Shown in pieces: positions 34,688 through 57,769 of a DNA stretch of 64,000 nt. How positions within the stretch are numbered: the stretch's first letter is position 1; every line of letters begins with the position of its first letter. The stretch comes from an uncultured Oscillospiraceae bacterium (GTDB lineage: Bacteria > Bacillota > Clostridia > Oscillospirales > Oscillospiraceae). A model generated the notes under the pieces. The model did not search any database. It was given only the letters and a program-made list of their open reading frames with translations, and had not been told where the DNA came from. Position numbers and translations under genes: made by a program. The DNA is taken from contig CAJTYK010000002.1 of NCBI GenBank assembly GCA_910584285.1, positions 2,261-66,260 on the forward strand, read 5' to 3'.

Positions 34688-36283
34688 CTACCTGTCCCAC
34701 TTGGCAATAAGCGCCCGGATCTGATCCTCGAACTTGCCCAGATCCTTGTTGGAGCCGCCCCGGTTGTGGGCGATGACCTCCAACAGCTTCTGGCCCATAT
34801 CCTCCAGCCGGCGGTAGGCCGGGGAGCCCATGGGGGCCGCCGGGACCTTGGGCTCCAGCACGATGCCCGGGGCGATCAGGCGGTTATCCAGCAGGTCGTA
34901 GACCTCCTCATAATCAGGGGCGTGGACGGCAAAGCCCAGCTCCTTCAGGGTCTGGGTGTAGTTCTCCGCGGCCCGGGCCTCGCCGTGTACCACGAACACC
35001 TGCTTGGGCTTGGGGCTGAAGGCGCTGATCCAGCGCACCAGTCCGTCCCGGTCTGCGTGGGAGCTCAGGCCGTGGAAGCGGACGATCCGCGCCCGGACCG
35101 CCACCTCCTCCCCGAACAGACGCACCCGCTGGGCGCCGTCCAGAATCCGGCGGCCCAAGGAGCCGTCCGCCTGGTAGCCCACAAAGAGGATGGTGCACTC
35201 CGGTCGCCACAGATTGTGCTTCAGGTGGTGCCGGATGCGGCCCGCGTCGCACATGCCGGAGGCGGAGATGATCACCTTGGGGGTGGGGTCGGCGTTCAGC
35301 CCCCGGGATTCCTCGGTGCCCTCGGTGATGTTCAGCCCCGGGAAGCGGAACAGCGCCCCGCCCCGCAGGTGCTCAATGGCGTCCTCGTCCAAGTAGCCGG
35401 TGAGATCGCCGGAAAAGATCTCGGTGGCCGCCCCGGCCAGGGGGGAGTCCACGTACACCTGGAAGTCGGGGTTGTGGCGCACCAGCCCCTGCTCCTTGAT
35501 CTGGCGGATAAAGTACAGCAGCTCCTGGGTGCGGCCCACGGCGAAGGAGGGGATGATCAGGTTGCCCCCCTCAGCCATAGTCTCGTCAATGACCCGGGCC
35601 AGATCGTCGGCGTAGTTGGGCTTTTCCTTCACGTTGTGGAGCCGGTCGCCGTAGGTGCTCTCCGTCACCACATAGTCGGCGTCCGTGATGTACTGGGGAG
35701 CGCGGATGATGGGGGTTTTCCGGTTGCCGATGTCGCCGGAGAACACGATCTTCCGGGTCTCCTCCCCCTCGGTGAGCCAAAGCTCCGCGCAGGCGGAGCC
35801 CAGCAGGTGGCCCGCGTCGATAAACCGGGCCCGGATGCCGTCGGAGATCTGGAACTCCTGGCCGTACTCCATGGTGACCACGTGCCGCAGGGCCCGCTCC
35901 ACGTCCACGATGGTATACAGCGGCTCCACCGGGGGCTTGCCCGCCCGCTGGCCCTTCTGGTTCTCCCAGGCGGCGTCGCTCTCCTGGATGTGGGCGGAGT
36001 CCCGGAGCATGATGTCCAGCAGCTGGGCCGTCAGCCGGGTGCAGTAGATATTGCCCCGGAAGCCCTGCTTCACCAGCAGGGGGATACGCCCTGAGTGATC
36101 GATGTGGGCGTGTGTGACCACCATGTCGTCGATGAGGGAGGGGGCGAAATCCAGCTCGGCGTTGTCCCGCTCGTCCCGGCCCTGCTGCAGGCCGCAGTCC
36201 ACCAGCACCTTGTGGCCGTTGGCCTCCACACAGTGGCAGCTGCCGGTGACCGCCTTGGCCGCGCCGAAAAAGGTCAATTTCAT
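34688..36283 (-). CDS. MBL-fold metallo-hydrolase with beta-CASP/RNA-specificity domain
   Basis: ATG 36283 follows GAGGTG. HAHIDHSG motif and beta-CASP-type blocks. The ORF-track start is 36376. Confidence 0.8.
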   Translation of the reverse strand: MKLTFFGAAKAVTGSCHCVEANGHKVLVDCGLQQGRDERDNAELDFAPSLIDDMVVTHAHIDHSGRIPLLVKQGFRGNIYCTRLTAQLLDIMLRDSAHIQESDAAWENQKGQRAGKPPVEPLYTIVDVERALRHVVTMEYGQEFQISDGIRARFIDAGHLLGSACAELWLTEGEETRKIVFSGDIGNRKTPIIRAPQYITDADYVVTESTYGDRLHNVKEKPNYADDLARVIDETMAEGGNLIIPSFAVGRTQELLYFIRQIKEQGLVRHNPDFQVYVDSPLAGAATEIFSGDLTGYLDEDAIEHLRGGALFRFPGLNITEGTEESRGLNADPTPKVIISASGMCDAGRIRHHLKHNLWRPECTILFVGYQADGSLGRRILDGAQRVRLFGEEVAVRARIVRFHGLSSHADRDGLVRWISAFSPKPKQVFVVHGEARAAENYTQTLKELGFAVHAPDYEEVYDLLDNRLIAPGIVLEPKVPAAPMGSPAYRRLEDMGQKLLEVIAHNRGGSNKDLGKFEDQIRALIAKWDR

Positions 36284-36333
36284 CAAAAGGCACCTCGATT
36301 CTCTTTCCTGTCTTGTGCAGGTTCTATAATGGC

Positions 36334-36362
36334 ATTGTATAACAGGACGGGGGAAAAGTAAA
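36334..36362 (-). promoter_or_regulatory. candidate promoter of the beta-CASP gene
   Basis: Minus strand: TTTACT (36362-36357), 17 nt, TACAAT (36339-36334). Confidence 0.4.
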
Positions 36363-36384
36363 GGGCTTCCCGACAACTTTCGGG

Positions 36385-36431
36385 AAAAATAGAGGAAGGC
36401 CGGGCTGCCCCCCGACCTTCCTCTATTTTTT
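36385..36431 (-). terminator. intrinsic terminator closing the B12-uptake operon (bidirectional shape)
   Basis: Minus strand: AAAAAATAGAGGAAGG ... CCTTCCTCTATTTTT, an 11-bp outer stem with a GC-rich inner stem. Confidence 0.8.
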
Positions 36432-36455: not shown

Positions 36456-37562
36456 TCAGAAGCCGGACTCGTCCAGCTTCCCTTGGCTCCGGGCCAGCTC
36501 CCGCAGCCGCCGGTTGCCCTCGTTCATCTCCCCGAAGTCCTCCACTGGGCAGAGCACCCGGGTGCACCCCTCCATCAGGGCAGCGGCCCGCCGGAGCGCC
36601 TCCTCCCCGATGGGGCGGAAAGGCTTCTCCGAGACGGTCTCCACCGCCAGTGCCCGGGCCACGGGGTAGTCCAGGTCGTTCTCCCCCAGCACCCCGGCGG
36701 CAAAGGGCGTCCCCTGCCGCTGGAGCCGGCGATAGACCGGGATGCCCGCCCCGCCGCCGCCGATGACAAACACCTCCGGGGCCCCGGAGGCCGCCTCCAG
36801 CTCCAGCGAGCCGTACAGGGCGTTGTAGCTGCCCCGGGCCGCGCCGTACAGATCCGTGATATACTCCGCAGTGAAGATGTCCTCCGGCGGGCCCTGCCGA
36901 GCGATGGTATCCCCCGAGACGCACACCACCCAGTCGCTGATCTTCTGGGCCAGATCCAGCTCGTGGAGGGACATCACCACCGCCAGGTTCCGGGAGCGCA
37001 CCATGTCCTTCAAGATGGCCAGCAGCTCCAGCTTGTGGCGGATGTCCAGGAAGGAGGTGGGCTCGTCCAGCACCAGCACCTCCGGCTCCTGGTTCAGCGC
37101 CCGGGCCAGCAGCACCCGCTGGCGCTGCCCGTCGCTGATCCGGGAGAAGTCCCGATCCGCCAGGTCGGCGGCGTGCACCAGCTCCAGGCTCTTGGCTGTC
37201 TTGTCCCGATCCTCCTGGGTCAGGATCCCCAGCCGCCCGGTGTAGGGATACCGCCCGGTGGCCGCCACGTCGAAGCAGGTCATCAGCTCCGGGCGGACGT
37301 GGGCGGTCATGAGCACGCTGAGCTTCCGGGCCACGTCCCGCTCGCTGAGGGCCGCCATGTCCTCCCCACCCAGGTACACCGCCCCCCCGATGAGGGGGAG
37401 CTGCCGGATGAGGCTTTTCAGGATGGTGGATTTGCCCGCCCCGTTGGGGCCGATAAGGGTCATGATCCGCCCCCGGCGCAGCTCCAGCTCAATGCCGCTG
37501 ATGAGGGCCCTTTTGTGGTAGCCCACGCTGAGGTGTTCCGTGCGCAGACGCGGTTCGCTCAT
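36456..37562 (-). CDS. ABC transporter ATP-binding protein (FepC/BtuD class) with a roughly 110-aa C-terminal extension
   Basis: ATG 37562 overlaps the permease stop (ATGA). Walker A (GPNGAGKST), signature (ISDGQRQR) and Walker B (VLVLDEP) are present. The extra C-terminal domain starts around EVFVIGGGGAGIP. The ORF-track start at 38123 is an artefact. Confidence 0.85.
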   Translation of the reverse strand: MSEPRLRTEHLSVGYHKRALISGIELELRRGRIMTLIGPNGAGKSTILKSLIRQLPLIGGAVYLGGEDMAALSERDVARKLSVLMTAHVRPELMTCFDVAATGRYPYTGRLGILTQEDRDKTAKSLELVHAADLADRDFSRISDGQRQRVLLARALNQEPEVLVLDEPTSFLDIRHKLELLAILKDMVRSRNLAVVMSLHELDLAQKISDWVVCVSGDTIARQGPPEDIFTAEYITDLYGAARGSYNALYGSLELEAASGAPEVFVIGGGGAGIPVYRRLQRQGTPFAAGVLGENDLDYPVARALAVETVSEKPFRPIGEEALRRAAALMEGCTRVLCPVEDFGEMNEGNRRLRELARSQGKLDESGF

Positions 37563-38572
37563 GCCCGGGCCCCCTTCCCGCCCCGCCGGGAGGCCATGAG
37601 GTAGAGCACCACCGGCGCGCCGAACACGGCGGTGACGGAGCTGATGGACATATCCCGGGGGGCGAAGGCGGTGCGGGCGATGAGGTCGCAGAACAGGCAG
37701 AAGGCTGCGCCCCCCAAAAAACAGCCCGGTATGATCACGATGGGCTTTGCGGTGCGGAACAGGCCCTTCACCAGATGGGGCACAGCGATGCCCACGAAGG
37801 AGATGGGCCCGGCAAAGGCGGTGACGCAGGCGGACAGCAGGCTGGACAGCAGGATCAGCTCTGCCCGGAACCGCTTGATGTTCACCCCCATGCTCTGGGC
37901 GTACACCTCCCCCATCTGGTAGGCCCCAATGGGCTTGGACAGCAGGAAGGTGAGCACCAGGGCCACGCCCACCACCCAGGCCATGAGCCGCACGTTTTCC
38001 CAGGAGGTGCCGGAGAAGCTGCCCAGCGACCAGTTGTGGAGGTTGACGATGTTGGAGTCGTCGCTGAAGGTGATCACAAAGTCGGTGATGGCGGAGCAGA
38101 TGTTGCCGATCATGATGCCGCACACCACCAGCATGGACATATTCCGCACCCGCCGGGACATGAGCAGCACAAAGCCCATGGAGATCATGGATCCGGCGAA
38201 GGCCCCCGCCACCATGGCCATGGAGCTGATGACGATGCCCCGGCTGAGGAAGGTCACCATCACCAGGGCCACCGTCAGCTTGGCCCCGGAGGAGATGCCC
38301 AGCACAAAGGGCCCGGCGATGGGGTTAGCGAAAAAGGTCTGGAGCAGGAAGCCGGACACCGACAGCGCCCCGCCCAGGATGGCGGCGGCCAGCAGCCGGG
38401 GCAGGCGCATCCCCCAGATAATGCCGCTCTCCGACGGCTTTAGTAGGGCGGAAAATACCTCCTCCAGCGGTATGCTCACGCTGCCGGCGCTGATATTCCA
38501 CACCAGCAGCGCCAGCACCAGTGCCGTCAGCAGCGCCAGCCCTGCGGCGCAGCGCGGCCGGTTGTCTTTCAT
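37559..38572 (-). CDS. FecCD/BtuC-family ABC permease
   Basis: Polytopic FecCD-like sequence. ATG 38572 lies 6 nt after GGAGGGG. The ORF track starts at GTG 38590. Confidence 0.9.
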   Translation of the reverse strand: MKDNRPRCAAGLALLTALVLALLVWNISAGSVSIPLEEVFSALLKPSESGIIWGMRLPRLLAAAILGGALSVSGFLLQTFFANPIAGPFVLGISSGAKLTVALVMVTFLSRGIVISSMAMVAGAFAGSMISMGFVLLMSRRVRNMSMLVVCGIMIGNICSAITDFVITFSDDSNIVNLHNWSLGSFSGTSWENVRLMAWVVGVALVLTFLLSKPIGAYQMGEVYAQSMGVNIKRFRAELILLSSLLSACVTAFAGPISFVGIAVPHLVKGLFRTAKPIVIIPGCFLGGAAFCLFCDLIARTAFAPRDMSISSVTAVFGAPVVLYLMASRRGGKGARA

Positions 38573-38586
38573 CGTCATCCCCTCCG

Positions 38587-39777
38587 TCACGTCAGCCGGT
38601 AGAGATAGGTCAGCGACCCATCCGCCCCATGGCCTTGCGTCAGAATGTTATGGATGTCCAGCATCATCTCGCCCACGGACTGGGATTCCTGGAACATACT
38701 TTTTCCGGTGCACCACACATTTCCCTCCCGCACCGCCTTGAAGTCGGCCAGGGGGGCGCTTTTGGCAATGAGCTGCTCCAGCGTCTCCAACGTGCCCTCG
38801 ATGGTGCTGTTGTAGATGAGCACATCTGCGTCCTTTGCCTCGTGGTAGAAGCTCTCCATCTGGATGTTCATGGTGGACAGGGCGTTGTCCCCCTCCCCCA
38901 GGCCCTCGGGCAGATAGACCCCGCCCGCCAGGTCGATGGCCTTGGCGATGTAGTCCCCCGACTTGCGCACCGTCACCATGCCGTTGGCGGTGACGGCGAA
39001 GAAGGCCACCGTCTTTCCGGTGCTCTCCTGCTCCAGCACGGGCTCCAGCCTGGCCAGCTGCTCAGCGTAGTAGGCGTCGGCCTCCTTCTCCCGGCCCAGC
39101 AGGGCGCCGTACAGCTTCACCCACTCCATCCGGCCCAGGGGGTGGCTCTCATAGCTGGAGCGCTCCACCAGCACCGGGATGCCCAGCCGCTCCAGCTGCT
39201 CCTTCACCTCGGGGTTGTGGTAGATCATGGTGGACTCCAGGGCCATGCCACAGCCCTTGGACTGGAGCAGCTCGTAGTCCGGAGCGGAGTATTTCCCGGC
39301 GTACACCATCCGGCCCGCCTCCATGGCCTCCTTCACCTCGGGGAGATACCAGCCCGCCGCGTCGGTGCCCACCAGGGTGACGGCGTCCATGGCGTCCAGC
39401 TTCCGGAAGCAGTCCATGGCGGCGGTGGCCTGTAGGTAAATATTCTGGATGGGCTGGCGCAGAACGGTGACGTCCTCCGGCGTGCCCTCCGGGATGGGAT
39501 CCAGCTCGGGCACCACCAGATAGGTTTCCGTATCAATGGCGATCCGCTGATAGCCCTCCGGGGAATAATCCACGGAAAACATCTGGGCATAGTCCAGCTC
39601 CAGGTGTCGGCTCCAGTCCATCTCGCCCCAGGCCGGCACGACCCGCTCTGTGTTGGCGGGCTCCGACCCCTGGGAGGGCTCCTGGGCGGGCGGCGCGGAG
39701 GTCTCCCCAGCAGGGGCGCAGGCACACAGGGCCGCCGTCAGCGCCAGCAGGGGCACAACAATTTTCCACAATTTCAT
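38587..39777 (-). CDS. ABC substrate-binding lipoprotein (BtuF/FhuD class, Peripla_BP_2-like)
   Basis: Signal peptide with a lipobox (LTAALCAC). A cluster-A type binding-protein sequence next to the FecCD permease. Confidence 0.8.
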   Translation of the reverse strand: MKLWKIVVPLLALTAALCACAPAGETSAPPAQEPSQGSEPANTERVVPAWGEMDWSRHLELDYAQMFSVDYSPEGYQRIAIDTETYLVVPELDPIPEGTPEDVTVLRQPIQNIYLQATAAMDCFRKLDAMDAVTLVGTDAAGWYLPEVKEAMEAGRMVYAGKYSAPDYELLQSKGCGMALESTMIYHNPEVKEQLERLGIPVLVERSSYESHPLGRMEWVKLYGALLGREKEADAYYAEQLARLEPVLEQESTGKTVAFFAVTANGMVTVRKSGDYIAKAIDLAGGVYLPEGLGEGDNALSTMNIQMESFYHEAKDADVLIYNSTIEGTLETLEQLIAKSAPLADFKAVREGNVWCTGKSMFQESQSVGEMMLDIHNILTQGHGADGSLTYLYRLT

Positions 39778-39787: not shown

Positions 39788-40423
39788 TTACTGCTTCGTC
39801 AGGCTGGCGGAATCAAAGGTTACGGTGTACTCCACCTCATGGGGCTCGCTCATAGCCACCGTGTCGGCGATGACGGTCAGCGGCGCGTCAAAGGCGGTCA
39901 CTGGGATCTCAAAGACGGAGTTGCTGCCCGGGGCGCTGATCAGGTCGTAGCGCACGCCGTTCACCTTCATGTAGTCAAAGTTGGGACTGCTCCACACAAT
40001 GGTGGCGTAAAACTTTCCGCCCGAGCACCGCAGCGCCGCAGGAGACTGGATGGTGGCCCGTCCGGTGCCCCCTGACAAGGTGACCTTGGCGGTGTAGCTG
40101 CCGTCCTCCGGGCCGGAGGGGGTGGGCTCCGGGGTGGGGGCCGTTGTGGGCTCCGGAGTGGGCTTGGCAGTGGGCTTTGCCGTGGGCTCCGGGGTGGCCG
40201 TGGGCTCCGGGGTGGGAGCTGTTGTGGGCTCGGTCGTGGCGGTGGCCTCCGGGGCGGGGGTGGCCGTGGGCTCGGTTGTGGCGGCAGGCTGGGACTGCTC
40301 CGGAGCGGGGCTGGGGGTCTGGGTGGGCTCCGGCGGCTGCTGCGGCTGCTGCGCGGCACAGCCGGCCAGCACCGTCAGGGTCAGCGCCAGCGCCGCCAGA
40401 CGGGCCATCGTGTTCTGTTTCAT
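39788..40423 (-). CDS. lipoprotein: Pro/Thr-rich linker plus a roughly 105-aa uncharacterised beta-rich (NEAT-like) C-terminal domain
   Basis: ATG 40423 follows GAGGAGGA. Lipobox LAGC. About 80 aa of EPT/TPA repeats. The C-terminal domain is shared with the C-terminus of the upstream SLH-CbiK protein. Confidence 0.7.
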   Translation of the reverse strand: MKQNTMARLAALALTLTVLAGCAAQQPQQPPEPTQTPSPAPEQSQPAATTEPTATPAPEATATTEPTTAPTPEPTATPEPTAKPTAKPTPEPTTAPTPEPTPSGPEDGSYTAKVTLSGGTGRATIQSPAALRCSGGKFYATIVWSSPNFDYMKVNGVRYDLISAPGSNSVFEIPVTAFDAPLTVIADTVAMSEPHEVEYTVTFDSASLTKQ

Positions 40424-40487: not shown

Positions 40488-42353
40488 TTATTTCGCCTTG
40501 GCGGTGTCTGCCTGGAAGGTCAGGGTGCGGTCGTACCAGGTGTCCTTCTTTGCGCTGTGGGCGGCATAGTCCAGAGGCTTGTCCAGCTCGGCCACGGCCA
40601 GGGTGAAGGTGGTCTTGCCGTCGGCCTTCACACCGTCCACCACGCCCTCCTGGGCCAGGCCGGCGGCGGAGGCGGTGCCCACAAACATCTTGTCGAAGCT
40701 CTCGCTGCCCAGCACCAGCTGGGCGGTCATCTTGCCGTCCTTCACGGTGAGGGTGCAGCTGTCGATCTTGAACATGGACTGCTCGCACTCCACCTCGATG
40801 GCGTACACGCCGTCGGCCAGTCTCTCCTTGCCGTCGGGGTTCTCGGGGTTGGGCTCCACGTCCACGCCGGTGTCGCCCAGGGGCTTGGCGGCCTTGGCAT
40901 GGGCGGCCAGCAGATCCCGGATGGCCTGGAGCTCGCCCAGGCCCTTCACCTCACACTGGACCTCCAGTCCGGCGGCGGAGAACACAGAGTACCAGGACTG
41001 GGGGTCGTTCTCATCGGCCATGTCGTTGTTGGCGTGATCCCCCGCCACGATCATCATGGGGCGCAGCACCACCTTGGTGTATCCGGCCGCCTTCACCAGC
41101 TCCACCAGCTCCTGGGCGGTAGGGGAGGCCTCCACGGTGCCAATAAAGTAGTTCTTGTGGCCCTTGTCGGTGAGCACCTGCTGCATCTTGGCGTAAATGC
41201 TGTTGGAGGCGGCCTCGGTGCCGTGGCCCATGTAGCACACGGCGGTCTTGCCGTCCTTGGCCAGGTCCTGGGTGGCGGCCACCATGGCGTCGGCCACCTG
41301 GTCGAAGTCGTCGTCGGTGGTGAGCAGGGGGGCGCCGATCTTGATGGACTGGAAGTTGCCCTCATATTTCTCCAGGGCCTTCACCAGATCGCCGTACTCC
41401 CAGCCGTTCATCAGGTGGGTGGGCTGCACCAGCAGCTCCTCCACGCCGTTCTTCTTGGCCCGCTCCAGGGCCTCCTTCACGTTGTCGATGAGCTCGCCGT
41501 CCCGGCGGTATACATGCTCGATGATGATGTCGGCGGTAAAGCCACGGCGGACATCATAGTCCGGGAACGCTTTGTCCAGGTCGTCCTCGATGGCCTTGAT
41601 GGTCAGCACCCGGTTGTCGTTGAAGCTGGTGCCAAAGCTCACCACCAGCAGCTCCTTCTTGCCGATGCTGTCCTGGTTGCGGGGGTTATCCTTGGAGGCG
41701 TCGCCGGTGGCGGCGTCAGCCATGTAGCGGCACAGGATGGCGGACACCTCCGCCCGGGTGGCGGTGCCGTTGGGGTTGAGCTTCCGGTTCTGATCCCCGG
41801 TGATGAACTCGCTGGCCACGGCCCAGTTCATGTAGCCCTTGGCCCAATCGCTCACCTCGGCGGCGTCGGGATAGGCGGACGTCTCGTCCTTGCGGCTTTT
41901 CAGGGCGTCCTTGCCCACCTGGCGGGCGGCAAACTCGCAGATGATCTTGGCGATCTCCTGCCGCTTGACGGTGCCATTGGGGTCAAAGGTGTCGTTGTTG
42001 GCGGTCTTGCCGTTGACGATCTTCTGGGAGAAGGCCCAGACCACCGCGTCCCGGTAAGCATCCCCCTCCTTCACATCCTGGAAGGGATTGTCCACGCCCT
42101 TCACATCGGGGGAGTTGGCCAGACGGTACAGCGCCGTCACCAGCTCCGCCCGGGTCATGGGCTCGTTGGAGCCAAAGGTGGTGTCGGTTCTGCCGTCCAC
42201 CAGGCCCTTCTCCGTCACCTCGGCCACATACTCCTTGGCCCAGTCGGGCACGTCGGTGTACTTGGCTGCGTCGGCGGCGAAGGCGGAGCCGGTCAATCCC
42301 GCCGCCAGCACCAGGGCCAGCAGCAGCGCGGTGAGCTTGTTCCGTTTTCTCAT
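40488..42353 (-). CDS. secreted S-layer-homology (3x SLH) protein fused to a CbiK-type chelatase domain and a C-terminal NEAT-like domain
   Basis: Signal peptide (..GSAFA/AD). Three SLH repeats (aa 30-215). CbiK-like core (aa 232-487) with both conserved His blocks (LVQPTHLMNGWEY, CYMGHGTE). C-terminal domain aa 512-621. AAGGAGG lies upstream. Confidence 0.8.
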   Translation of the reverse strand: MRKRNKLTALLLALVLAAGLTGSAFAADAAKYTDVPDWAKEYVAEVTEKGLVDGRTDTTFGSNEPMTRAELVTALYRLANSPDVKGVDNPFQDVKEGDAYRDAVVWAFSQKIVNGKTANNDTFDPNGTVKRQEIAKIICEFAARQVGKDALKSRKDETSAYPDAAEVSDWAKGYMNWAVASEFITGDQNRKLNPNGTATRAEVSAILCRYMADAATGDASKDNPRNQDSIGKKELLVVSFGTSFNDNRVLTIKAIEDDLDKAFPDYDVRRGFTADIIIEHVYRRDGELIDNVKEALERAKKNGVEELLVQPTHLMNGWEYGDLVKALEKYEGNFQSIKIGAPLLTTDDDFDQVADAMVAATQDLAKDGKTAVCYMGHGTEAASNSIYAKMQQVLTDKGHKNYFIGTVEASPTAQELVELVKAAGYTKVVLRPMMIVAGDHANNDMADENDPQSWYSVFSAAGLEVQCEVKGLGELQAIRDLLAAHAKAAKPLGDTGVDVEPNPENPDGKERLADGVYAIEVECEQSMFKIDSCTLTVKDGKMTAQLVLGSESFDKMFVGTASAAGLAQEGVVDGVKADGKTTFTLAVAELDKPLDYAAHSAKKDTWYDRTLTFQADTAKAK

Positions 42354-42388
42354 GTCTCGTTTTCCTCCTTACGGTCTCATTTGTTCTA

Positions 42389-42551
42389 AGAACCTGTATT
42401 CACAGCCGAAGATGCCGGCTGGGCGAGGGATTTTTTCGCCAGACAAGGCGCATTTTCGCAGGAATACTTTGTGTATTTCAAGAAAATGCAACGCAGTATG
42501 GCGGAAAAAGACCCGTCCAGACGGCGTTTGAGGTTGTGAATACAGGTTCTA
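42389..42551. mobile_element. 163-bp element bounded by perfect 16-bp inverted repeats (MITE-like) in the operon leader
   Basis: AGAACCTGTATTCACA (42389-42404) pairs with TGTGAATACAGGTTCT (42536-42551). The interior is 47-50% G+C by hand count of two 60-nt lines, lower than the flanks. Confidence 0.6.
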
Positions 42552-42605: not shown

Positions 42606-42850
42606 AAAAAGGAAACGCCCCGGGCCGAAGGCCTCGGGGCGCGACAATGCCTCACGCGCGGAACACCGCCGTGAGGCCGAATCAAAAGCGCACTCTTGGT
42701 TTCGGCAGAATGCAGCCAGCCGCCACATATCTGACTTATCCCCTCAACGGGGGCATCACAGTGACCGACTCGCAGGGACTCTCACCCTATTCTGTGCGCC
42801 GCCACAGGCGGCCGCGGTTGGCTTCCAGCTATTCAGTTGAACTGACAAAT
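42606..42850 (-). promoter_or_regulatory. cobalamin riboswitch 1 (aptamer about 42690-42850, terminator 42606-42642)
   Basis: Minus strand reads GGTGAGAGTCCCTGCGAGTCGGTCACTGTGATGCC...GGGGATAAGTCAGATATGTGGCGG (core plus B12-box-like block). The terminator CGCCCCGAGGCC TTCG GCCCGGGGCG plus TTTCCTTTTT follows. Confidence 0.85.
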
Positions 42851-42852: not shown

Positions 42853-42881
42853 AGGCTAACACGGCGGAACGGATTTGTCAA
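42853..42881 (-). promoter_or_regulatory. candidate promoter of riboswitch 1
   Basis: Minus strand: TTGACA (42881-42876), 17 nt, TAGCCT (42858-42853). Confidence 0.45.
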
Positions 42882-42918: not shown

Positions 42919-43950
42919 CTATCCGGGGAACCGGGCAGCCCAGTCCTCCTCCGCCACCGCCACGGTGACGCCGTTCCGGATGGTTTTGCCCACCACCAGT
43001 CGCCGGGCGCCCATTCTGGCGGCCCGTTCGCACACGTTATCCACCCCCGTGAAGCGCAGCACCCGCTCAGAATGGGCAAAGTCCCCCGCCAGCGCCGCCA
43101 GCTCCCGGGCGCTGTAAAAGGCCGCCGGCCAGCCCTGGGCGGCGCAGTAGTCCAGCAGGCCCTCCTCATCCCGCTTCAGATCGATGGAGGCCACGCAGCT
43201 CACCGCCCTGGGGTGGATGTCATGCTCCTCCAGCACCTGCTTCACCGCCGCCCGGATGGCCGCCTCGCTTGTCCCCCGCCGGCAGCCCAGGCCCAGGTGG
43301 AGCACCGGGGGAACCAGCAGCAGCGTCTCCCGGAAGGGGGCCTTTTTCCGCCAGGAGATGCAGATGCCCACCGCTCCGCTGTCTCCCCGCTCCGTGCCGG
43401 GGGGCAGTTCCCCCTCCACGGGAAAGTCACAGCACAGGGGCACCGGGCCCTCCAAAATGGCAGCGGATACCGCCTTGGCCGCCTTCATGTCGTCGAGGAA
43501 CAGCCCCTGCCGGGCGGCCCAGGCGTCCACAGAGAATTTCCCGTTGACGTCGGTGGCGGTGGTAACCACCGGCTCCGCCTCCAGCCCCCGGGCCAGCCGC
43601 AGGGCCAGGGCGTTGGCCCCGCCGATATGGCCGGACAGCAGGGGGATGACAAACTGCCCCAGCTCGTCCACGCACAGCACCGCCGGATCGGTGCGCTTGT
43701 CCCGCACCCAGGGGGCGATGGAGCGCACAGCGATGCCCGCCGCCCCTACAAATATCAGGGCGTCCCCCCAGGCAAACAGCGGGCCGGTGGCCTGGGCGCA
43801 GGGGGAGCCCAGCACCTCAAACGTCCCGTCCGCGTACCGCTCCGGGGCCAGGCACCGGCACTCGTCCCCCGGGCCCCGCAGGCAGTCCCGGATCCGCAGG
43901 GCCGTCTCCCGCCCCCGGCGGCTGTAGGCAAATATGGCCAGCTTCATCAC
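42919..43950 (-). CDS. cbiG: cobalt-precorrin-5A hydrolase
   Basis: 343 aa. CbiG N- and C-terminal domains (VGAAGIAVRSIAP, LGLGCRRG). Confidence 0.85.
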   Translation of the reverse strand: MMKLAIFAYSRRGRETALRIRDCLRGPGDECRCLAPERYADGTFEVLGSPCAQATGPLFAWGDALIFVGAAGIAVRSIAPWVRDKRTDPAVLCVDELGQFVIPLLSGHIGGANALALRLARGLEAEPVVTTATDVNGKFSVDAWAARQGLFLDDMKAAKAVSAAILEGPVPLCCDFPVEGELPPGTERGDSGAVGICISWRKKAPFRETLLLVPPVLHLGLGCRRGTSEAAIRAAVKQVLEEHDIHPRAVSCVASIDLKRDEEGLLDYCAAQGWPAAFYSARELAALAGDFAHSERVLRFTGVDNVCERAARMGARRLVVGKTIRNGVTVAVAEEDWAARFPG

Positions 43951-43973
43951 GCCCGCCCCCTTTCTTCCCCCTG

Positions 43974-44002
43974 ATTATTGCAGGGCTGCGGCGGATTGTC
44001 AA
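43974..44002 (-). promoter_or_regulatory. candidate promoter of cbiG
   Basis: Minus strand: TTGACA (44002-43997), 17 nt, AATAAT (43979-43974). Confidence 0.55.
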
Positions 44003-44052
44003 GGGGATCCCCCCGCCGGGATGGGAAGTTCGGCGCTGGGCACAAAAAGCTA

Positions 44053-44081
44053 TTGCTATTGTGGACCCAATAGTATATAAT
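44053..44081 (+). promoter_or_regulatory. tetR-family gene promoter with an embedded palindromic operator
   Basis: TTGCTA (44053-44058), 17 nt, TATAAT (44076-44081). The palindrome CTATTG-N6-CAATAG (44056-44073) lies in the spacer. Confidence 0.6.
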
Positions 44082-44129
44082 ACTCTTATTAAGAAACCTT
44101 CGCCCGCAAATTGAGAGGAGGGGCCGTAC

Positions 44130-44738
44130 TTGGACGACACCAAAACAAGGATCCTCTCCGCGGCGATGAAGGCCGTCCGGCAGTATGGGCTGGAAGGCGT
44201 CCGGGTACAGAACATCAGCGAGCTGGCCGGCATCTCCCCCGGGGCCATGTACCGCTACTTCAAAAGCAAGGACGAGCTGATGGTGGCCTGCTTTGCCAGC
44301 GTGGATCAGCAGGCAGCCGCCATCTTTGATCATCTCAAGTTCAACCCCCTGATCATGTTCACCGACCCCATGAAGGCGGTCAGGAGCCTGTGGGTGCCCT
44401 ACTTCCGTTTCTGGGTGGCCCATCCGGACGAGACGGTGTTCTACCACCGCTTCCGGGACAGCGCCGCCTTCCCCGAATTTTACAAGCACTACGACGGAAG
44501 CCATTTCAACACCTTCGGCGGCATGGTGCGGGCCTTTATGAACACCTTCCCCAGCCTGCGCAGGATCAACCAGGATCTACTGTGGCTCCACGTGCTCACC
44601 TCCACCGTGATGTATGCCAAATACGTGGTGGAGGGCACGCTGCCCAACACCCAGGAGACGGAGGACACGGTGTTCCAGTTTATCAGCGTGGGCCTGAGCG
44701 GTTACCTGCGGCCCGAGAACGCAACCCCTAATTCTTAG
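44130..44738 (+). CDS. TetR/AcrR-family transcriptional regulator
   Basis: 202 aa. N-terminal HTH (TRILSAAMKAVRQYGLEGVRVQNISELAGISPGAMYRYFKSKDEL). TTG start follows GAGAGGAGGGG. Confidence 0.85.
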   Translation: MDDTKTRILSAAMKAVRQYGLEGVRVQNISELAGISPGAMYRYFKSKDELMVACFASVDQQAAAIFDHLKFNPLIMFTDPMKAVRSLWVPYFRFWVAHPDETVFYHRFRDSAAFPEFYKHYDGSHFNTFGGMVRAFMNTFPSLRRINQDLLWLHVLTSTVMYAKYVVEGTLPNTQETEDTVFQFISVGLSGYLRPENATPNS

Positions 44739-44885
44739 AATAGGCCGCCGGGCCATGCGGGATCAGGGGATGCCCCCTCAGACCTTCATCGGCGAGTTCT
44801 TTGACCGGGTATATCCGGACGAGTACATCGACGAAAAGATCCCCGCCATGGTGTTTAAGCAGGGGAATAGAGCCAGCCAGCAAAA

Positions 44886-44922
44886 AGCCGGCGGCGGGAT
44901 GTCCATCCCACCGCCGGCTTTT
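44886..44922. terminator. bidirectional terminator between the tetR-family gene and the end of the cob operon
   Basis: AAAAAGCCGGCGGCGGGAT ... ATCCCACCGCCGGCTTTT, with one mismatch in a 15-bp stem. Confidence 0.75.
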
Positions 44923-44939
44923 GACGTTTTGCTTGCCGC

Positions 44940-45458
44940 TCAGAACTCCACGCCCTCCCGGGCGGGGATCCCCTGGGCAAAGGGGTGGCGATGGCAGCGC
45001 ATCTCGGTGCTGTAGTCCGCCGCGTCCCGCATCCAGTCCGCCGGTCGCCGCCCGGTGAGCACCAGCTCCTGCCCGGACGGCTTTTCCAGCACCGCCCGGC
45101 GGAGCAGCGCCTCGTTCACCAGCCCCTTTTCCAGGGCGGCGCACGCCTCGTCCAGCACCAGCAGATCGGCGTTTAGCTCCAGCGCCTGCCGCAGGTGCTG
45201 GGTGTGGAGGGCCCAGGTCTCCGCCCGCTCCGTTTCGTCCATCCGGGCGGAAAACCTCGTCCCCGCCTTCCCCCGGAGCACCTGGGCCCCCAGGCATTGG
45301 AGCAGGGGGATCTCCCCGCTGTGTCCCCCCTTGAGGAACTGGACGATCACCACCCGCCGCCCCGCCCCCAGGGCCCGCAGGGCCAGCCCCATGGCGGCGG
45401 TGGTTTTGCCCTTGCCCTCCCCCCAGTAGAGGTGGATCAGGCCCCGCTCCCCGCTCAT
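44940..45458 (-). CDS. cobO: cob(I)yrinic acid a,c-diamide adenosyltransferase
   Basis: 172 aa. GEGKGKTTAAMGLALRA P-loop of the CobA/CobO/BtuR family. Confidence 0.9.
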   Translation of the reverse strand: MSGERGLIHLYWGEGKGKTTAAMGLALRALGAGRRVVIVQFLKGGHSGEIPLLQCLGAQVLRGKAGTRFSARMDETERAETWALHTQHLRQALELNADLLVLDEACAALEKGLVNEALLRRAVLEKPSGQELVLTGRRPADWMRDAADYSTEMRCHRHPFAQGIPAREGVEF

Positions 45459-46138
45459 GACAGCTTTTCCTGCCGCCCCGCGGGATCGGTGGCGTTCAGG
45501 GCGGCGTACAGCAGGGCGTTGCAGATGGCGGCGGCTACGTTGCTGCCCCCCTTGCGGCCCATGGCCGCGATGCAGGGCACGCCGTACCGCTCACAGGCCG
45601 CCACCATCCGCTCCTTGCTCTCCACCACGTTGACAAAGCCCACCGGCACCGCCACCACAAAGGCGGGGCGCAGCCCGCCCTCCATCAGCTGGCACAGCTT
45701 CAGCAGGGCCGTGGGGGCGTTGCCCACCGCCAGGGCCGCGCCGGGGTACTCTCCCGCCGCTTTCTCCATGCACACCGTCGCCCGGGTAACGCCCCGGCTT
45801 TTGGCCTGTCGGGCCACCTCCGGATCCGCCATGAAGCAGTACACCTCACCCCCCAGCTTGGCCAGCGCGGTCTTGCTCACCCCCGCCTTGGCCATGTTGG
45901 TGTCCGTCACAATGGACGCCCCCGCCCGGAGGGCCTTCACCGCCGCCTCCACCGCACCGTCGGTGAAACGCAGGCTGTGGGCGTAGTCAAAGTCCGCCGT
46001 GGTGTGGATCACCCGCTTCACCACCGGCTCCCGGTCAGCCGGCAGGACAATCCCCATCTGGGCCAGCTCCGCGGCGATGATGCGCATACTTTCCCCCTCG
46101 ATGTCCGAGGGACGCTGATAGGTCAATTCCCGTTCCAT
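45455..46138 (-). CDS. cbiC: precorrin-8X methylmutase
   Basis: 227 aa. VIHTTADFDYA and GNAPTAL motifs. Confidence 0.9.
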   Translation of the reverse strand: MERELTYQRPSDIEGESMRIIAAELAQMGIVLPADREPVVKRVIHTTADFDYAHSLRFTDGAVEAAVKALRAGASIVTDTNMAKAGVSKTALAKLGGEVYCFMADPEVARQAKSRGVTRATVCMEKAAGEYPGAALAVGNAPTALLKLCQLMEGGLRPAFVVAVPVGFVNVVESKERMVAACERYGVPCIAAMGRKGGSNVAAAICNALLYAALNATDPAGRQEKLS

Positions 46139-47620
46139 TCAATTCATCCCCATCATTCCATAGAGTTCCCTCAGCTCGAGGGCCTGCCGCACCCCGTCCG
46201 CCAGCAGGTCGAGCTGGGCCTGCTGATAGGCGGCGTGGGACACCGCCCGGGTGCGCTCCACCGGCAGCCCCCGGCGCTCACACAGCAGTGCCGCCAGCTT
46301 CTGGGTCAGCTCCCCGCTGTCGAACAGCCCGTGGAGGTAGGTGCCCCACACATTGTCCCGGACGCAGCCGTCCTCCCGGCCGTCCTCCAGGCGGCAGAAG
46401 GGCTCCCCGAGCACCTGAGTGCGCCCCATGTGGATCTCGTATCCCTCCAGCTTGGCCCCGGCCAGCGGACCGGACACCACCTGGCCCCCCACCCGGGTGC
46501 GGGACTTCTCGGGCAGGAAGGTGGTCTCCACCGGCAGCAGGCCCATCCCCCGGACGCTGCCTCCCGCACCGTGCTCTACCCCCGACTGGTCGTGGACGGC
46601 CTCGCCCAGCATCTGATAGCCGCCGCACACCCCCAGCACCGGCGTGCCCGCCGCGGCCAGCTTCAAAATGGCGGCCTCCAGCCCGCACTGCCGCAGCCAG
46701 AGCAGGTCGCCCACTGTGCTCTTTGTCCCAGGCAGGATCACCAGATCGGGCAGGCCCAGCTTCCGGGGGTCGTCCACATAGCGCACCCCGATTTGCGGGT
46801 GCTCCTCCAGGGGGGTAAAGTCGGTGAAGTTGGAGATCCGGGGCAGGCGCACCACCGCCGCGTCCAGGGGCTTGTGGGCGGCCTCCTGTTCCAGGCAGGG
46901 GGCCAGGGAGTCCTCGTCGTCCACGTCCACCTTGAGGTAGGGCACCACGCCTAAGACCCGTTTGCCCGTCTTTTCCTCCAGCATGGACAGGCCGGGGCGC
47001 AGAATCTCCGGATCCCCCCGGAACTTGTTGATGATCAGCCCCTGGATCAACTCCTGCTCCTGGGGCTGGAGCAGGGCCACGGTGCCATAGAGCTGGGCGA
47101 ACACGCCACCCCGGTCGATGTCCCCCGCCAGCAGCACCGGCGCGTTCAGCCGCAGAGCCAGCCCCATGTTGACAATATCGTCCGCCCGGAGGTTGATCTC
47201 CGCGGGGCTGCCCGCCCCCTCAATGACGATGACATCGTTCTCGGCGGCGAGACTGTCGTAGGCCGCCAGCACCTCGGGGAACAGCTGCTTCTTATAGCGG
47301 AAATACTCCGCCGCCGACATCTGCCCCCGCACCTCTCCCAGGACAATGACCTGGCTGCCCGTGTCACTGCTGGGCTTGAGCAGCACCGGGTTCATCCGCA
47401 CGTCCGGCTCCACCCCCGCCGCCTGGGCCTGCACCGCCTGGGCCCGGCCCATCTCCAGCCCGTCCCGGGTGACGTGGCTGTTCAGCGCCATATTTTGGCT
47501 CTTGAAGGGGGCCACCCGGTATCCGTCCTGGGCGAAGATCCGGCACAGGGCAGCGCACAGCAGGCTTTTGCCCGCCCCGGACATGGTGCCCTGGATCATG
47601 ATGCACTTTGCTGGGCTCAT
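46139..47620 (-). CDS. cbiP: cobyric acid synthase
   Basis: ATG 47620 overlaps the cobD stop (ATGA) and follows GAAGGAGG. IMIQGTMSGAGKS and the GATase block GVCGGYQMLG are present. The ORF-track start at 48244 is an artefact. Confidence 0.92.
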   Translation of the reverse strand: MSPAKCIMIQGTMSGAGKSLLCAALCRIFAQDGYRVAPFKSQNMALNSHVTRDGLEMGRAQAVQAQAAGVEPDVRMNPVLLKPSSDTGSQVIVLGEVRGQMSAAEYFRYKKQLFPEVLAAYDSLAAENDVIVIEGAGSPAEINLRADDIVNMGLALRLNAPVLLAGDIDRGGVFAQLYGTVALLQPQEQELIQGLIINKFRGDPEILRPGLSMLEEKTGKRVLGVVPYLKVDVDDEDSLAPCLEQEAAHKPLDAAVVRLPRISNFTDFTPLEEHPQIGVRYVDDPRKLGLPDLVILPGTKSTVGDLLWLRQCGLEAAILKLAAAGTPVLGVCGGYQMLGEAVHDQSGVEHGAGGSVRGMGLLPVETTFLPEKSRTRVGGQVVSGPLAGAKLEGYEIHMGRTQVLGEPFCRLEDGREDGCVRDNVWGTYLHGLFDSGELTQKLAALLCERRGLPVERTRAVSHAAYQQAQLDLLADGVRQALELRELYGMMGMN

Positions 47621-48693
47621 AAAGTTTCCTCCTTCAAAACGTCCTGTAGCGCGGCGATAAGCCGCCCGTTGTCCGCCCCGTCCCGCACCGCCGTCCGATA
47701 CCAGCCCCGGCCCAGCCCGTGGTAGTTGGAGCAGTCCCGCAGCAGGATCCCCCGCTCCCGCAGGGGCTCCTCCAGGGGCACGGGGGATTGGAACAGCAGA
47801 TAGTTGGCCTCCCCCGGGATCACCCGCAGGCCCAGCCGGACCAGTGCCTGCGCCAGCCGGGGCCGCTCTGTCCGGATCAACGTCTGGACAGCCTCCACAT
47901 AGGCCGTCTCCTCCAGCGCGGCCATACCCGCCGCCTGAGCGGGGCCGGACACCGCCCAGGGCTGGCCCGCCTCCCGCATCCGCCCCAGCAGGGCGACATC
48001 GGTGCACAGGCAGTACCCCAGCCGCAGCCCCGCCATGGCATACAGCTTGGTGAAGGCCTTCAGGATCAGCAGGTTGGGATACCGGCCCAGAAGGCCCTTC
48101 ATGGTGAACGCCTCCGGCTCGTCCAGAAAGTCCAGGAAGCACTCGTCCACCACCAGCAGGGCGTCCGCCTCCCGGCAGCGCTCCAACGCCCGCTCCAGCA
48201 GGGGCCGGGGGATGGTTCGCCCAGTGGGGTTGTTGGGCTGGCACAGGAACACCAGGTCTGTTTCCGGGGAAATCGCGTCCGGGAAGTCCTCCCCCAGGGC
48301 GAACTCGTCCTCCGCCCGGAGGGGGAAGCGATCCGTTTTACATCCAATCAGCTCCAGCGCCGCCTCATACTCCGCGAAGGCGGGGGCGGTGATGAGGGCC
48401 TTTTCCGGCCGTCTGGCCAGCACCGCCCGGTAGATCAGATCCGCCGCCCCGTTTCCGCACAGGCACCAGTCCGGCTCCACCCGCTCCGCCCGGGCGATGG
48501 CCTCCACCAGGCCGCGGCACAGGGGATCGGGGTAGCGGTGGGCATCGGCCAGCGCGTCCGCCGCCGCCCGGCGCACCCCCTCCGGCATCCCCAGAGGGCT
48601 GATGTTGGCGGAGAAGTCCAGGGGCTGCCCCCCGTACCGGGCCTGATAGCCCGCCCAGTCCCCGCCATGGGTCAACCGCCGCCCCTCCGTCAT
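47617..48693 (-). CDS. cobD: threonine-phosphate decarboxylase (class I/II aminotransferase fold)
   Basis: 358 aa. N-terminal HGG plus a PLP-aminotransferase-like sequence, located between cbiB and cbiP. Confidence 0.85.
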   Translation of the reverse strand: MTEGRRLTHGGDWAGYQARYGGQPLDFSANISPLGMPEGVRRAAADALADAHRYPDPLCRGLVEAIARAERVEPDWCLCGNGAADLIYRAVLARRPEKALITAPAFAEYEAALELIGCKTDRFPLRAEDEFALGEDFPDAISPETDLVFLCQPNNPTGRTIPRPLLERALERCREADALLVVDECFLDFLDEPEAFTMKGLLGRYPNLLILKAFTKLYAMAGLRLGYCLCTDVALLGRMREAGQPWAVSGPAQAAGMAALEETAYVEAVQTLIRTERPRLAQALVRLGLRVIPGEANYLLFQSPVPLEEPLRERGILLRDCSNYHGLGRGWYRTAVRDGADNGRLIAALQDVLKEETL

Positions 48694-49664
48694 GGCTTCC
48701 GCCTCCGGTGGCCCGCCAGGGCTCTGGCCAGCAGCCCCGCCCCCAGGGCCAACCCGCCGGCGGCGTACAGCATCCGGTTGGCTCGGGTAATGTCCTTTGG
48801 CTCCACCGGCCTGCCGGGGTCACCGATGGTGGGCTTGTCCACCGTCTTGCCGAAGTAGGACGCGGGCCCCGCCAGCTGAACGCCCAATGCCCCGGCGCAG
48901 GCGGACTCCGTCTGGGCGGAGTTGGGGCTGGCATGGTTCCGGCGATCCCGCCGCCAGATCCGCCACGCCCCCCGTCCGTCCTGCCCGGTGAGGAAGGCCC
49001 CGCCCATCCAGCACAGCGCCGCCAGCCGGGAGGGGATCAGGTTGGCCGCATCGTCCAGCTTGGCCGCCGCCCTGCCAAAGTAGAGGTAGCGGTCGTTTTT
49101 ATAGCCCACCATGCTGTCCATGGTGTTCACCGCCTTGTAGGTGAGGGCCAGGGGCGCACCGCCCAGGAGCATATAGAACAGCGGCGCGGCCACCCCGTCG
49201 GAGAAGTTCTCCGCCACCGTCTCCACCGCGGCCTTGGCCACCCCCTCCGCCGTCAGCACCTGGGTGTCCCGGCCCACGATCCGGCCCACGGCCCTTTGGG
49301 CGGCGGGCAGATCGCCCCGCTCCAGCTCCGCCTGGACGCGGCCGCTCTCCACCGCCAGCCCTTTGAGCGCCAGCGCCTGCCAGCACCACAGCGTCTCCAG
49401 GGCAAAGCCGGCGGCGGGGTGGAGCTTATTGGCCACCCGGCACGCCCCGGCCGTGACCGCGTACGTTCCCACCGGGAGGGCCGCCGCTAAAACCGCCCCG
49501 CCCAGCAGCTCCCCCTGGGGCGTTTTAGGCAGGCGGGGGCGCAGAAAGCCCTCCAGAGCGGAGATAGCCTTTCCCATGTACACCACCGGATGGGGCATCC
49601 GCTCCGGATCGGCCAGCAGCAGATCCAGGGCGAAGCCGCAGGGGATGGCAGGGTTAAATTTCAT
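48690..49664 (-). CDS. cbiB: adenosylcobinamide-phosphate synthase
   Basis: 324-aa membrane protein. DLLLADP..PHPV N-terminal motif. Confidence 0.9.
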   Translation of the reverse strand: MKFNPAIPCGFALDLLLADPERMPHPVVYMGKAISALEGFLRPRLPKTPQGELLGGAVLAAALPVGTYAVTAGACRVANKLHPAAGFALETLWCWQALALKGLAVESGRVQAELERGDLPAAQRAVGRIVGRDTQVLTAEGVAKAAVETVAENFSDGVAAPLFYMLLGGAPLALTYKAVNTMDSMVGYKNDRYLYFGRAAAKLDDAANLIPSRLAALCWMGGAFLTGQDGRGAWRIWRRDRRNHASPNSAQTESACAGALGVQLAGPASYFGKTVDKPTIGDPGRPVEPKDITRANRMLYAAGGLALGAGLLARALAGHRRRKP

Positions 49665-57768: not shown

Positions 57769-57769
57769 G

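Follow-up and report, generated by a model that had tools for sequence, protein, structure and literature searches.

What would a protein with the fold of a cobalt chelatase do on the outside of a bacterial cell? The question is raised by a gene in a 64,000-nucleotide (nt) stretch of DNA from an uncultured gut Oscillospiraceae bacterium (contig CAJTYK010000002.1), which was analysed as a whole and is called the window below. The gene encodes a 621-residue protein in which a CbiK-type domain is combined with a predicted signal peptide, three SLH repeats and a C-terminal domain of NEAT fold, and it stands first in an operon for an ATP-binding cassette (ABC) importer. We consider it fairly likely that this protein is the outermost part of a B12-repressed relay capturing and importing corrinoids (cobamides or cobalt-containing precursors). 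It would thus capture a ligand, being neither a biosynthetic chelatase nor, probably, part of a haem system. Export, wall anchoring, the identity of the ligand and the direction of its transfer are all predictions. The gene and its parts are as follows:

40488-42353, minus strand: gene of the 621-residue protein, with signal peptide, three SLH repeats, CbiK domain and NEAT-fold domain.
42276-42353, minus strand: putative signal peptide, residues 1-26, with AFA/AD cleavage, from sequence inspection and conservation.
41709-42266, minus strand: three SLH repeats, residues 30-215, the predicted cell-wall anchor, from Pfam, PDB sequence matches and Foldseek.
40887-41660, minus strand: CbiK (class II chelatase) domain, residues 232-489, with F240, H313, H377, E408 and H440.
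40491-40820, minus strand: NEAT-fold domain, residues 512-621, with conserved Y517, S526-M527-F528 and W606-Y607-D608-R609.

The reading frame opens with an ATG at 42353, and AGGAGG lies 11 nt 5' of this start. By inspection, the predicted signal peptide consists of MRKRNK, a hydrophobic core of 14 residues and AFA|AD, with no lipobox cysteine; the pattern is kept in 15 of 15 orthologues. Pfam SLH matches in three tandem stretches (E 2e-25), the make-up of a pseudo-trimeric wall-binding module, with TRAE, KRQE and TRAE motifs readable in the sequence. PDB sequence matches of this region are Sap, SbsB and SpaA, and Foldseek superposes the modelled SLH module on the SLH structures of Sap and SpaA with a TM-score normalized to the target (TMt) of 0.78-0.81. 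Numerous other SLH proteins are encoded at the related loci. An AlphaFold2 model of the whole protein, built on a 40-sequence family alignment, has a mean predicted local distance difference test score (pLDDT) of 84.7, low across the signal-peptide stretch. The same architecture recurs in more than 100 clusters at 64-100% identity, mainly from metagenome-assembled genomes of Oscillospiraceae/Oscillibacter. Public records label the family 'hypothetical protein' or 'sirohydrochlorin cobaltochelatase', the latter being the JGI name of one orthologue.

The CbiK core is complete. PF06180 matches residues 233-489 with 251.5 bits against a cutoff of 26.2 (E 1e-74), covering profile positions 1-260 of 262. 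The closest solved structures by sequence are 1qgo (Salmonella CbiK, E 3e-43), FetB 9b86 (1e-39) and CbiKP 2xvx (5e-29); in a Foldseek search of the PDB, the core model, a two-lobed alpha/beta chelatase fold, superposes on 1qgo with a TMt of 0.93 (root-mean-square deviation 1.7 Å, 257 columns), on 9b86 with 0.88 and on 2xvx with 0.89. Aligned to 1qgo with HMMER, the protein has F240, H377, E408 and H440 at the positions of Salmonella Phe10, His145, Glu175 and His207; these four and H313 do not vary in the 40-member family alignment. The roles of His145, His207 and Phe10 in the Salmonella enzyme are described in PMC4063343. An earlier note on this DNA, made from the letters alone, had read the signal peptide, the three SLH repeats, a complete CbiK core and an extra C-terminal domain from this gene, and all four hold. 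It had also assigned the catalytic or metal-binding histidines to two blocks: CYMGHGTE does hold the His145 equivalent H377, while VQPTHLMNGWEY is not the second catalytic block, as it aligns to the His83 block of Salmonella CbiK and the His207 equivalent H440 sits in VAGDHANNDMA. The alignment to CbiK structures that it had proposed as a check finds the catalytic pair present, as H377 and H440, both invariant.

Could the protein then be an ordinary biosynthetic sirohydrochlorin cobaltochelatase, with an N-terminal extension that is an artefact or irrelevant? The score far above the PF06180 cutoff, the position next to cbiG and the cobalamin-synthesis cluster, and the JGI name of the orthologue would all fit. 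However, one uninterrupted open reading frame (ORF) encodes the signal peptide, the three SLH repeats and the NEAT domain, and every orthologue keeps them. The gene shares its operon with importer genes and not with cbi genes; the latter adjoin this operon in only 5 of 16 loci. The protein also scores 218.9 bits with the sirohydrochlorin cobaltochelatase equivalog of NCBIfam (NF047852), under its cutoff of 400, and is therefore not classed as a pathway enzyme. We find the biosynthetic explanation scarcely credible; the view that an exported, SLH-anchored CbiK is not the cytoplasmic pathway enzyme is borne out by its four-part anatomy and by this score. A mis-called start codon was considered and rejected because the signal peptide and the SLH repeats are conserved in every orthologue.

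What accompanies the CbiK module at the other end of the protein? Modelled alone with AlphaFold2, the C-terminal domain reaches a pLDDT of 91.8, and its top 33 Foldseek matches in the PDB are all NEAT domains (IsdX1, Hbp2-N2, IsdC, Shp, IsdA, IsdH and IsdB), the best being IsdX1 3sik (E 1.6e-5, TM-score normalized to the query, TMq, 0.67). Judged by this model, it is a divergent domain of the NEAT fold, an eight-stranded beta-sandwich. Pfam NEAT itself covers residues 532-612 with 17.3 bits (E 0.0066), below the cutoff of 32.8. A profile of the domain family aligns the Ser-Met-Phe motif (S526-M527) with the ISM lip of IsdX2-N5, a weak match (E 0.03). Across 216 domain copies the conserved positions are G515, Y517, M527, F528, W606, Y607, D608 and R609; Tyr607 is found in 77% of them, and the second Tyr of the YxxxY motif of strand 8 is Leu or Ile (Y607xxxL611 here).

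The gene is the first of five on the minus strand, with short or overlapping junctions. The remainder of the operon is made up as follows:

39788-40423, minus strand: lipoprotein with lipobox LAGC, a Pro/Thr/Glu linker of about 80 residues and a NEAT-like domain at residues 104-211.
38587-39777, minus strand: substrate-binding lipoprotein, Peripla_BP_2 (FecB/BtuF/haem-type cluster), Pfam E 4.6e-25.
37559-38590, minus strand: FecCD-family permease, Pfam FecCD E 3e-76.
36456-37562, minus strand: ABC ATPase, Pfam ABC_tran, whose start overlaps the permease stop codon.
36366-36413, minus strand: terminator-like hairpins at the operon end.

In 15 of 15 genome loci of Oscillospiraceae/Oscillibacter, chosen by protein similarity alone, the five genes keep their synteny. 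The NEAT-like domain of the small lipoprotein is kept in each of these 15 loci; it matches Pfam NEAT with 17.5 bits (E 0.0058, below cutoff) and the C-terminal domain of the 621-residue protein in BLASTP with E 4e-4. Importers of the Peripla_BP_2/FecCD class carry chelates, not free ions, and for this reason a free Co2+ importer was rejected. Directly past the operon terminator, an RNase J-like gene of the metallo-beta-lactamase/beta-CASP type (34688-36376, minus) is syntenic in two of the related loci only (L001 and L002).

A wider view of the NEAT-like domain ties it to the importer. With the C-terminal domain as query, a word-indexed search yielded 8 fragments only, while the exhaustive HMMER search with residues 505-621 was informative and gave 719 representative proteins, many of them multi-copy. 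Architectures were tallied among the best 149 of these 719 (P0121-P0269): they hold one to nine NEAT-like copies, either by themselves or joined to a homologue of the operon's Peripla_BP_2 binding protein. The form in which NEAT-like copies precede the binding protein (N...N-SBP) occurs in more than 60 of the best 149, for example in P0121 (1965 residues), P0126 and P0130. Because the NEAT-like domain is physically fused to the importer's own binding protein, we argue that it would hand the ligand to the importer. Pfam NEAT stays below threshold in most relatives, and one passes (P0149, 35.5 bits). The tandem NEAT-like array fused to Peripla_BP_2 is an arrangement that Pfam NEAT at its cutoff does not cover.

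Which ligand would such a relay carry? An indication comes from the 565-nt intergenic region 5' of the gene, which starts with a promoter-like site and continues with a conserved RNA and then a terminator (the first three entries below; the fourth is a second copy elsewhere in the window):

42853-42881, minus strand: promoter-like site, TTGACA, 17 nt, TG-n-TAGCCT.
42676-42826, minus strand: cobalamin-riboswitch-like aptamer, kept in 16 of 16 loci.
42606-42642, minus strand: intrinsic terminator (predicted expression platform), a GC-rich stem-loop with a T run, conserved in the orthologous leaders.
59628-59830, minus strand: second riboswitch-like leader with terminator (aptamer 59680-59830), directly 5' of cbiD (58462-59607).

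The leader is present in all 16 orthologous loci, cbiG adjacent or not, and CTTGACA-17-TGnTAnnnT stands at the same position in each. A simple consensus promoter scan did not list the leader site, whose -10 element is off consensus. From its 5' end, the aptamer is composed of P1, the P2 hairpin, P3, GAAU, P4 (GGG-UGAGAGU-CCC) and the invariant GCGAGUCGGUCACUGUGA, followed by the P6 hairpin, AUAAGUCAGAUA, P3', P1' and a conserved 3' hairpin. Around the junction, its core blocks are those of cobalamin riboswitches: GAAUAGGG..CACUGUGA..UAAGUCAG (then A-A).

Several tests bear on this fold. The long-range P1/P3 pairing was evaluated on 98 sequences with 63 distinct 3' strands, in a fold allowing the P2 hairpin: cognate strands form 14.7 long-range pairs on average and non-cognate strands 7.6 (Mann-Whitney p 6e-31). 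On a MAFFT alignment of 99 leaders, RNAalifold recovers P3, P4 and P6; P1 and P2 are missed, since the variable flanks do not align properly. Duplex energy alone, computed for the 5' and 3' strands, discriminates poorly (-20.6 versus -18.0 kcal/mol) because of the GC-rich P2 arms. These comparisons describe the leader as an RNA that is structured and covaries, and whose order of helices, conserved blocks, expression platform and regulon are those of a cobalamin riboswitch; it may be an unannotated riboswitch variant. The best relevant match in an Rfam scan of a 221-nt leader slice is the adenosylcobalamin family RF01482, which covers the junction core at 17.8 bits (E 0.37) against a gathering score of 50; RF00174 gave no match to the variant leader, and a permissive Rfam scan of 701 nt gave nothing relevant. 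At metagenome and genome scale, the riboswitch-like RNA was seen at loci L001-L015 and L017-L136.

The same RNA heads the cobalamin-synthesis genes. The invariant 18-nt core GCGAGTCGGTCACTGTGA has exactly one further copy in the window, at 59765-59782, where 0.03 would be expected by chance; this copy belongs to the leader in front of cbiD. Because the same leader RNA stands before the importer operon and the cbi operon, we take the regulation as a sign of corrinoids over haem. In close relatives, the cbiD-type leader lies divergently next to cbiG (L001 4253-4452, minus; also L002 and L004); the cbi operon is thus placed differently around the CbiK-NEAT operon than in the window, which indicates a local rearrangement.

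A metagenome scan with the 18-mer found at least 120 loci. These were picked by exact match, and the first ORF behind each was assigned mechanically. Among the listed loci, the genes behind the core include cbi operons, hemC with tetrapyrrole methylases, cbiM, nrdD, btuF/C/D-like genes and further CbiK-NEAT operons; the largest class consists of giant surface proteins that contain DUF4465, the domain of the known B12 binder BtuJ, or DUF4430 together with SLH. For some genes a connection with B12 is not apparent (aconitase, Fe-hydrogenase, RecQ, LysR, bile-salt hydrolase), and 4 of 82 aligned core instances are chance matches without the flanking motif (L047, L048, L095 and L115). In two metagenome loci (L038 and L077) the first ORF behind the motif is a TetR gene.

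More distant relatives of the protein tell the same story by another route. At 52-62% identity, exported proteins carry two or three CbiK modules each, anchored through a lipoprotein signal or an N-terminal Cu_amine_oxidN1-like module; three of them (P0030, P0087 and P0104) end with a C-terminal NEAT-like domain, as does the 621-residue protein. The equivalents of Phe10, His145, Glu175 and His207 are kept in every repeat. DNA was taken for five tandem-CbiK relatives, of which P0104, with only 83 nt upstream on its contig, was left out of the riboswitch scan. A canonical RF00174 riboswitch stands directly upstream, on the same strand and 100-150 nt before the gene, in 4 of the 4 scanned (P0092, P0027, P0028 and P0087):

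L137: RF00174, 84.4 bits against a gathering score of 31.5; gene at 6001-8700.
L138: RF00174, 101.3 bits against a gathering score of 31.5; gene at 6001-8700.
L139: RF00174, 103.1 bits against a gathering score of 31.5; gene at 2203-4911.
L140: RF00174, 86.1 bits against a gathering score of 31.5; gene at 1398-4100.

By the standard criterion, then, the exported CbiK modules found in Clostridia are members of the B12 regulon, and this holds without recourse to the variant leader. At all four loci the tandem-CbiK genes stand alone, outside any ABC operon, and at L138 and L139 a gene of about 320 residues without Pfam match follows. A short motif, TGDAS(K/L)D(N/D)PRN(Q/A)D.IG at residues 216-231 of the 621-residue protein (41661-41708), lies just before its CbiK module. 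Motifs of this type precede every exported CbiK module, each tandem repeat included, occur in the inter-domain linkers of P0027, P0030, P0087 and P0104, and are not present in cytoplasmic CbiK; they could mark a module boundary or form a functional N-terminal extension.

With two or three CbiK modules per protein, and one to nine NEAT-like domains fused to the binding protein, we read these modules as binders and not as pathway enzymes. The ligand-capture role that had been suggested from the letters, by precedent, is here supported by context: a NEAT partner domain in the same chain, a NEAT-like lipoprotein, a type-II ABC importer and the tandem-CbiK relatives.

The neighbourhood raises a different possibility for the chelatase fold. 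Upstream of the gene and on the same strand, an anaerobic cobalamin cluster extends over 42919-59607 (minus) with cbiD, three tetrapyrrole methylases, cbiJ, cbiET, cbiA, cobT, cobS, cobU, cobC, cbiB, cobD, cbiP, cbiC, cobA/btuR and cbiG, the last being the one next to the CbiK-NEAT operon. Near-complete as it is, this cluster contains in the window neither cbiK/cbiX nor a cobalt transporter (cbiMNQO). No second CbiK was found in the 64 kb by tblastn, so that the exported one is the only CbiK homologue nearby; a stand-alone cytoplasmic CbiK was likewise found in none of the fetched loci, which bears on these loci and not on whole genomes. Between cobA/btuR and cbiG, a TetR-family gene (44130-44738, plus) lies on the opposite strand. 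Elsewhere the window holds ordinary chromosomal genes (nusA-infB, butyryl-CoA dehydrogenase/Etf, Fe-hydrogenase, HtrA, Rnf).

Might the wall protein fill this gap as an active extracellular chelatase? It would load a tetrapyrrole or corrinoid that lacks a metal with Co2+ or some other metal, outside the cell, and the importer would take up the product; cobalt would thus enter as a chelate, and the enzyme could replace a cytoplasmic CbiK. The catalytic residues are invariant in 40 members and in every tandem repeat, and FetB shows Co/Mn chelatase activity in vitro, with no dechelatase activity (PMC13065792). Control by a B12 riboswitch would suit cobalt supply as well, and Desulfovibrio organisms with cbiK are without known cobalt transporters (PMC545781). 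Yet we see no evident origin for sirohydrochlorin or a metal-free corrinoid outside the cell, the tandem modules and the NEAT partners speak for binding and transfer, and the CbiK equivalog cutoff lies well above the score of this protein. Moreover, the gap in the cbi cluster is that of 64 kb only, and a cytoplasmic chelatase and a cobalt transporter may be encoded elsewhere in the genome. On balance we regard extracellular chelation as quite unlikely. Its fullest version, in which the wall CbiK is active and the imported cobalt-tetrapyrrole feeds the cbi pathway at CbiL, making both a cytoplasmic cobaltochelatase and a cobalt-ion transporter unnecessary, strikes us as very unlikely. If extracellular chelation were true, exported CbiKs such as CbiKP and FetB would be parts of a cobalt-as-chelate acquisition route.

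The other alternative concerns the ligand. In a Gram-positive, Isd-like relay, the CbiK and NEAT modules would pass haem or porphyrin to a haem-type ABC importer, a role of the kind proposed for CbiKP and FetB/IhtB. To our knowledge, every characterised NEAT domain binds haem or haemoproteins, and the domain described here has the fold, a putative Ser-Met lip motif and a Tyr on its last strand. Both characterised exported CbiK homologues, CbiKP and FetB/IhtB, were isolated as haem or porphyrin binders and come from similar operons. One fragment of the C-terminal domain bears the JGI label 'heme-binding NEAT domain protein', and the Peripla_BP_2/FecCD class also carries haem. Against this stand the leader shared with the cbi operon and its B12-type regulon, the canonical cobalamin riboswitches before all four related exported CbiK genes, and the best named transporter matches, which are B12-type though below their cutoffs. 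At residue level, the YxxxY motif is incomplete, and the position of CbiKP His96, reportedly the haem axial ligand at the oligomer (inter-subunit) interface of that protein, is Gly321 here, invariant in the family. A haem-only Isd analogue was rejected, the regulation being B12-type; haem or porphyrin capture in general we hold to be unlikely.

Besides the haem-binding precedents of both folds, several observations tell against corrinoid capture. At the gathering score, Rfam calls no riboswitch in the whole window, in 10 genome loci or in 17 metagenome loci; RF00174, RF01482 and RF01689 were each absent at this threshold from the window and the 27 loci. We infer the ligand of the variant leader RNA from gene context only. 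For the binding lipoprotein, no PDB sequence or NCBIfam match assigns a ligand, the match being to generic Peripla_BP_2. The best named match of the permease is BtuC (NCBIfam, 210 bits), below its cutoff of 334, and that of the ATPase is the corrinoid ATPase PRK09536 (206.9 bits), below its cutoff of 537. The strict invariance of the catalytic residues would suit a true enzyme as well. Finally, in this strain an insertion lies between RNA and gene:

42383-42545, minus strand: 163-nt insertion resembling a miniature inverted-repeat transposable element, between the leader terminator and the ribosome-binding site, with terminal inverted repeats CCTGTATTCACA / TGTGAATACAGG and a flanking TAGAAC duplication.

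It is found in the window and in L002 and is cleanly absent from L001 and L004. As it holds a promoter-like TTGAAA-18-GAAAAT at 42452-42481, 3' of the terminator, transcription of the gene in this strain might in part escape control by the RNA.

Taking the evidence on both sides together, we retain corrinoid capture and propose the following route. Sec export and cleavage of the signal peptide would release the protein, which would be held on the secondary cell-wall polymer, non-covalently, by its three SLH repeats. A corrinoid would be bound at the wall surface by the CbiK-fold module, the NEAT-fold module or both; a candidate for the contact with cobalt is the CbiK pocket with its invariant His/His/Glu and Phe. 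The ligand would then move inward to the membrane lipoprotein, whose second NEAT-like domain, on its long Pro/Thr linker, may span the gap between wall and membrane; from there it would pass to the Peripla_BP_2 binding lipoprotein and enter through the type-II ABC importer with its BtuC/BtuD-like subunits. At high cellular levels of adenosylcobalamin, folding of the leader RNA would make transcription end at the terminator (42642-42606).

What appears new here is the combination of CbiK and NEAT in a protein predicted to sit on the wall. Exported CbiK homologues, NEAT relays and riboswitch-controlled cobamide capture are known kinds, and the system makes up no new category. In the literature we found no description of an SLH- or NEAT-linked CbiK or of a B12-linked NEAT domain, and nothing on cobalamin riboswitches together with Oscillibacter. 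A 2026 review calls cobamide capture in Gram-positive bacteria (Firmicutes) 'entirely uncharacterized' (PMC13616437). The family is abundant in Oscillospiraceae and offers a concrete candidate for such capture in the gut: the fold of a biosynthetic chelatase and the NEAT domain of haem receptors, each familiar from another task, would act on the wall under B12 control. If corrinoid binding is true, it would add a new ligand class for NEAT-fold domains and for exported CbiKs. The haem-centred roles of CbiKP and FetB/IhtB would then deserve a second look, since the CbiKP operon is B12-regulated in Desulfovibrio, where one B12 element controls cbiK-cbiL plus btuCDF (PMC545781), and the iht operon of Porphyromonas gingivalis is unresponsive to iron or haem starvation (PMC12094164).

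Two practical consequences follow for genome annotation. The prediction of B12 prototrophy from genomes scores the presence of CbiK/CbiX as the cobalt-insertion step (PMC8123684), and the name 'sirohydrochlorin cobaltochelatase' would wrongly fill this step in pathway reconstructions. An exported CbiK can be miscounted in this way because one source so names it and because it adjoins a cbi cluster devoid of a chelatase. In addition, Rfam 15 does not call the widespread leader RNA, and riboswitch-based maps of the B12 regulon in Oscillospiraceae would therefore be incomplete.

How does the system compare with those already known? Its core is closest, in sequence and structure, to Salmonella enterica CbiK (1qgo/2xwp), with which it shares the equivalents of Phe10, His145, Glu175 and His207; the Salmonella protein is a cytoplasmic, single-domain pathway enzyme, whereas the 621-residue protein is multi-domain, predicted to be exported and encoded in an importer operon. 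Desulfovibrio vulgaris CbiKP (2xvx, 31% identity) is an exported CbiK fold, as predicted for our protein, retains the catalytic His, and is encoded with a FecB/C/D-type ABC importer, its genus having the B12 element just mentioned. In contrast, CbiKP is a soluble periplasmic protein of a Gram-negative host, without SLH or NEAT, whose role was assigned to haem or iron and whose inter-subunit haem ligand is replaced here by glycine.

Porphyromonas gingivalis FetB/IhtB (9b86) is again a surface CbiK homologue, and in ihtABCDE it is followed, as here, by a binding protein, a permease and an ATPase. Unlike our protein it is a lipoprotein of the outer membrane, has a TonB-dependent receptor as its partner and contains neither NEAT nor SLH. 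Descriptions of it range from a haemin binder and a putative dechelatase to a producer of Mn-protoporphyrin IX; nothing usable was found in the literature on a B12 element upstream of iht.

The Isd-type haem relays of Firmicutes (IsdA/B/C/H with IsdE-IsdF; IsdX1/X2; Listeria Hbp2; Shp) offer a parallel for the route as a whole: NEAT modules at wall and membrane feed a Peripla_BP_2 lipoprotein and a FecCD importer, and tandem NEAT arrays occur in both. They differ by sortase/LPXTG anchoring and Fur/iron control, where SLH and lipoprotein anchoring and control by a B12-type RNA are predicted here. The domain described here is also set apart from theirs, as it does not reach the Pfam NEAT cutoff, has no second Tyr in YxxxY and is fused to CbiK.

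For its regulation, the leader resembles the cobalamin riboswitches RF00174/RF01482 in helix order, junction blocks, terminator and a typical B12 regulon, and departs from them in its condensed P4/P5, in GUCACUG in place of GCCACUG and in its sub-threshold score with RF01482. A functional counterpart of the proposed relay is the extracellular one of Bacteroides thetaiotaomicron, in which surface binders under cobalamin-riboswitch control (BtuG, BtuH and BtuJ, with BtuB and BtuFCD) feed a Btu importer. Its folds are unrelated (beta-propeller, DUF4430, DUF4465) and its binders are outer-membrane lipoproteins of a Gram-negative bacterium; the DUF4465 (BtuJ) and DUF4430 domains themselves, however, reappear in other surface proteins behind the leader motif described here.

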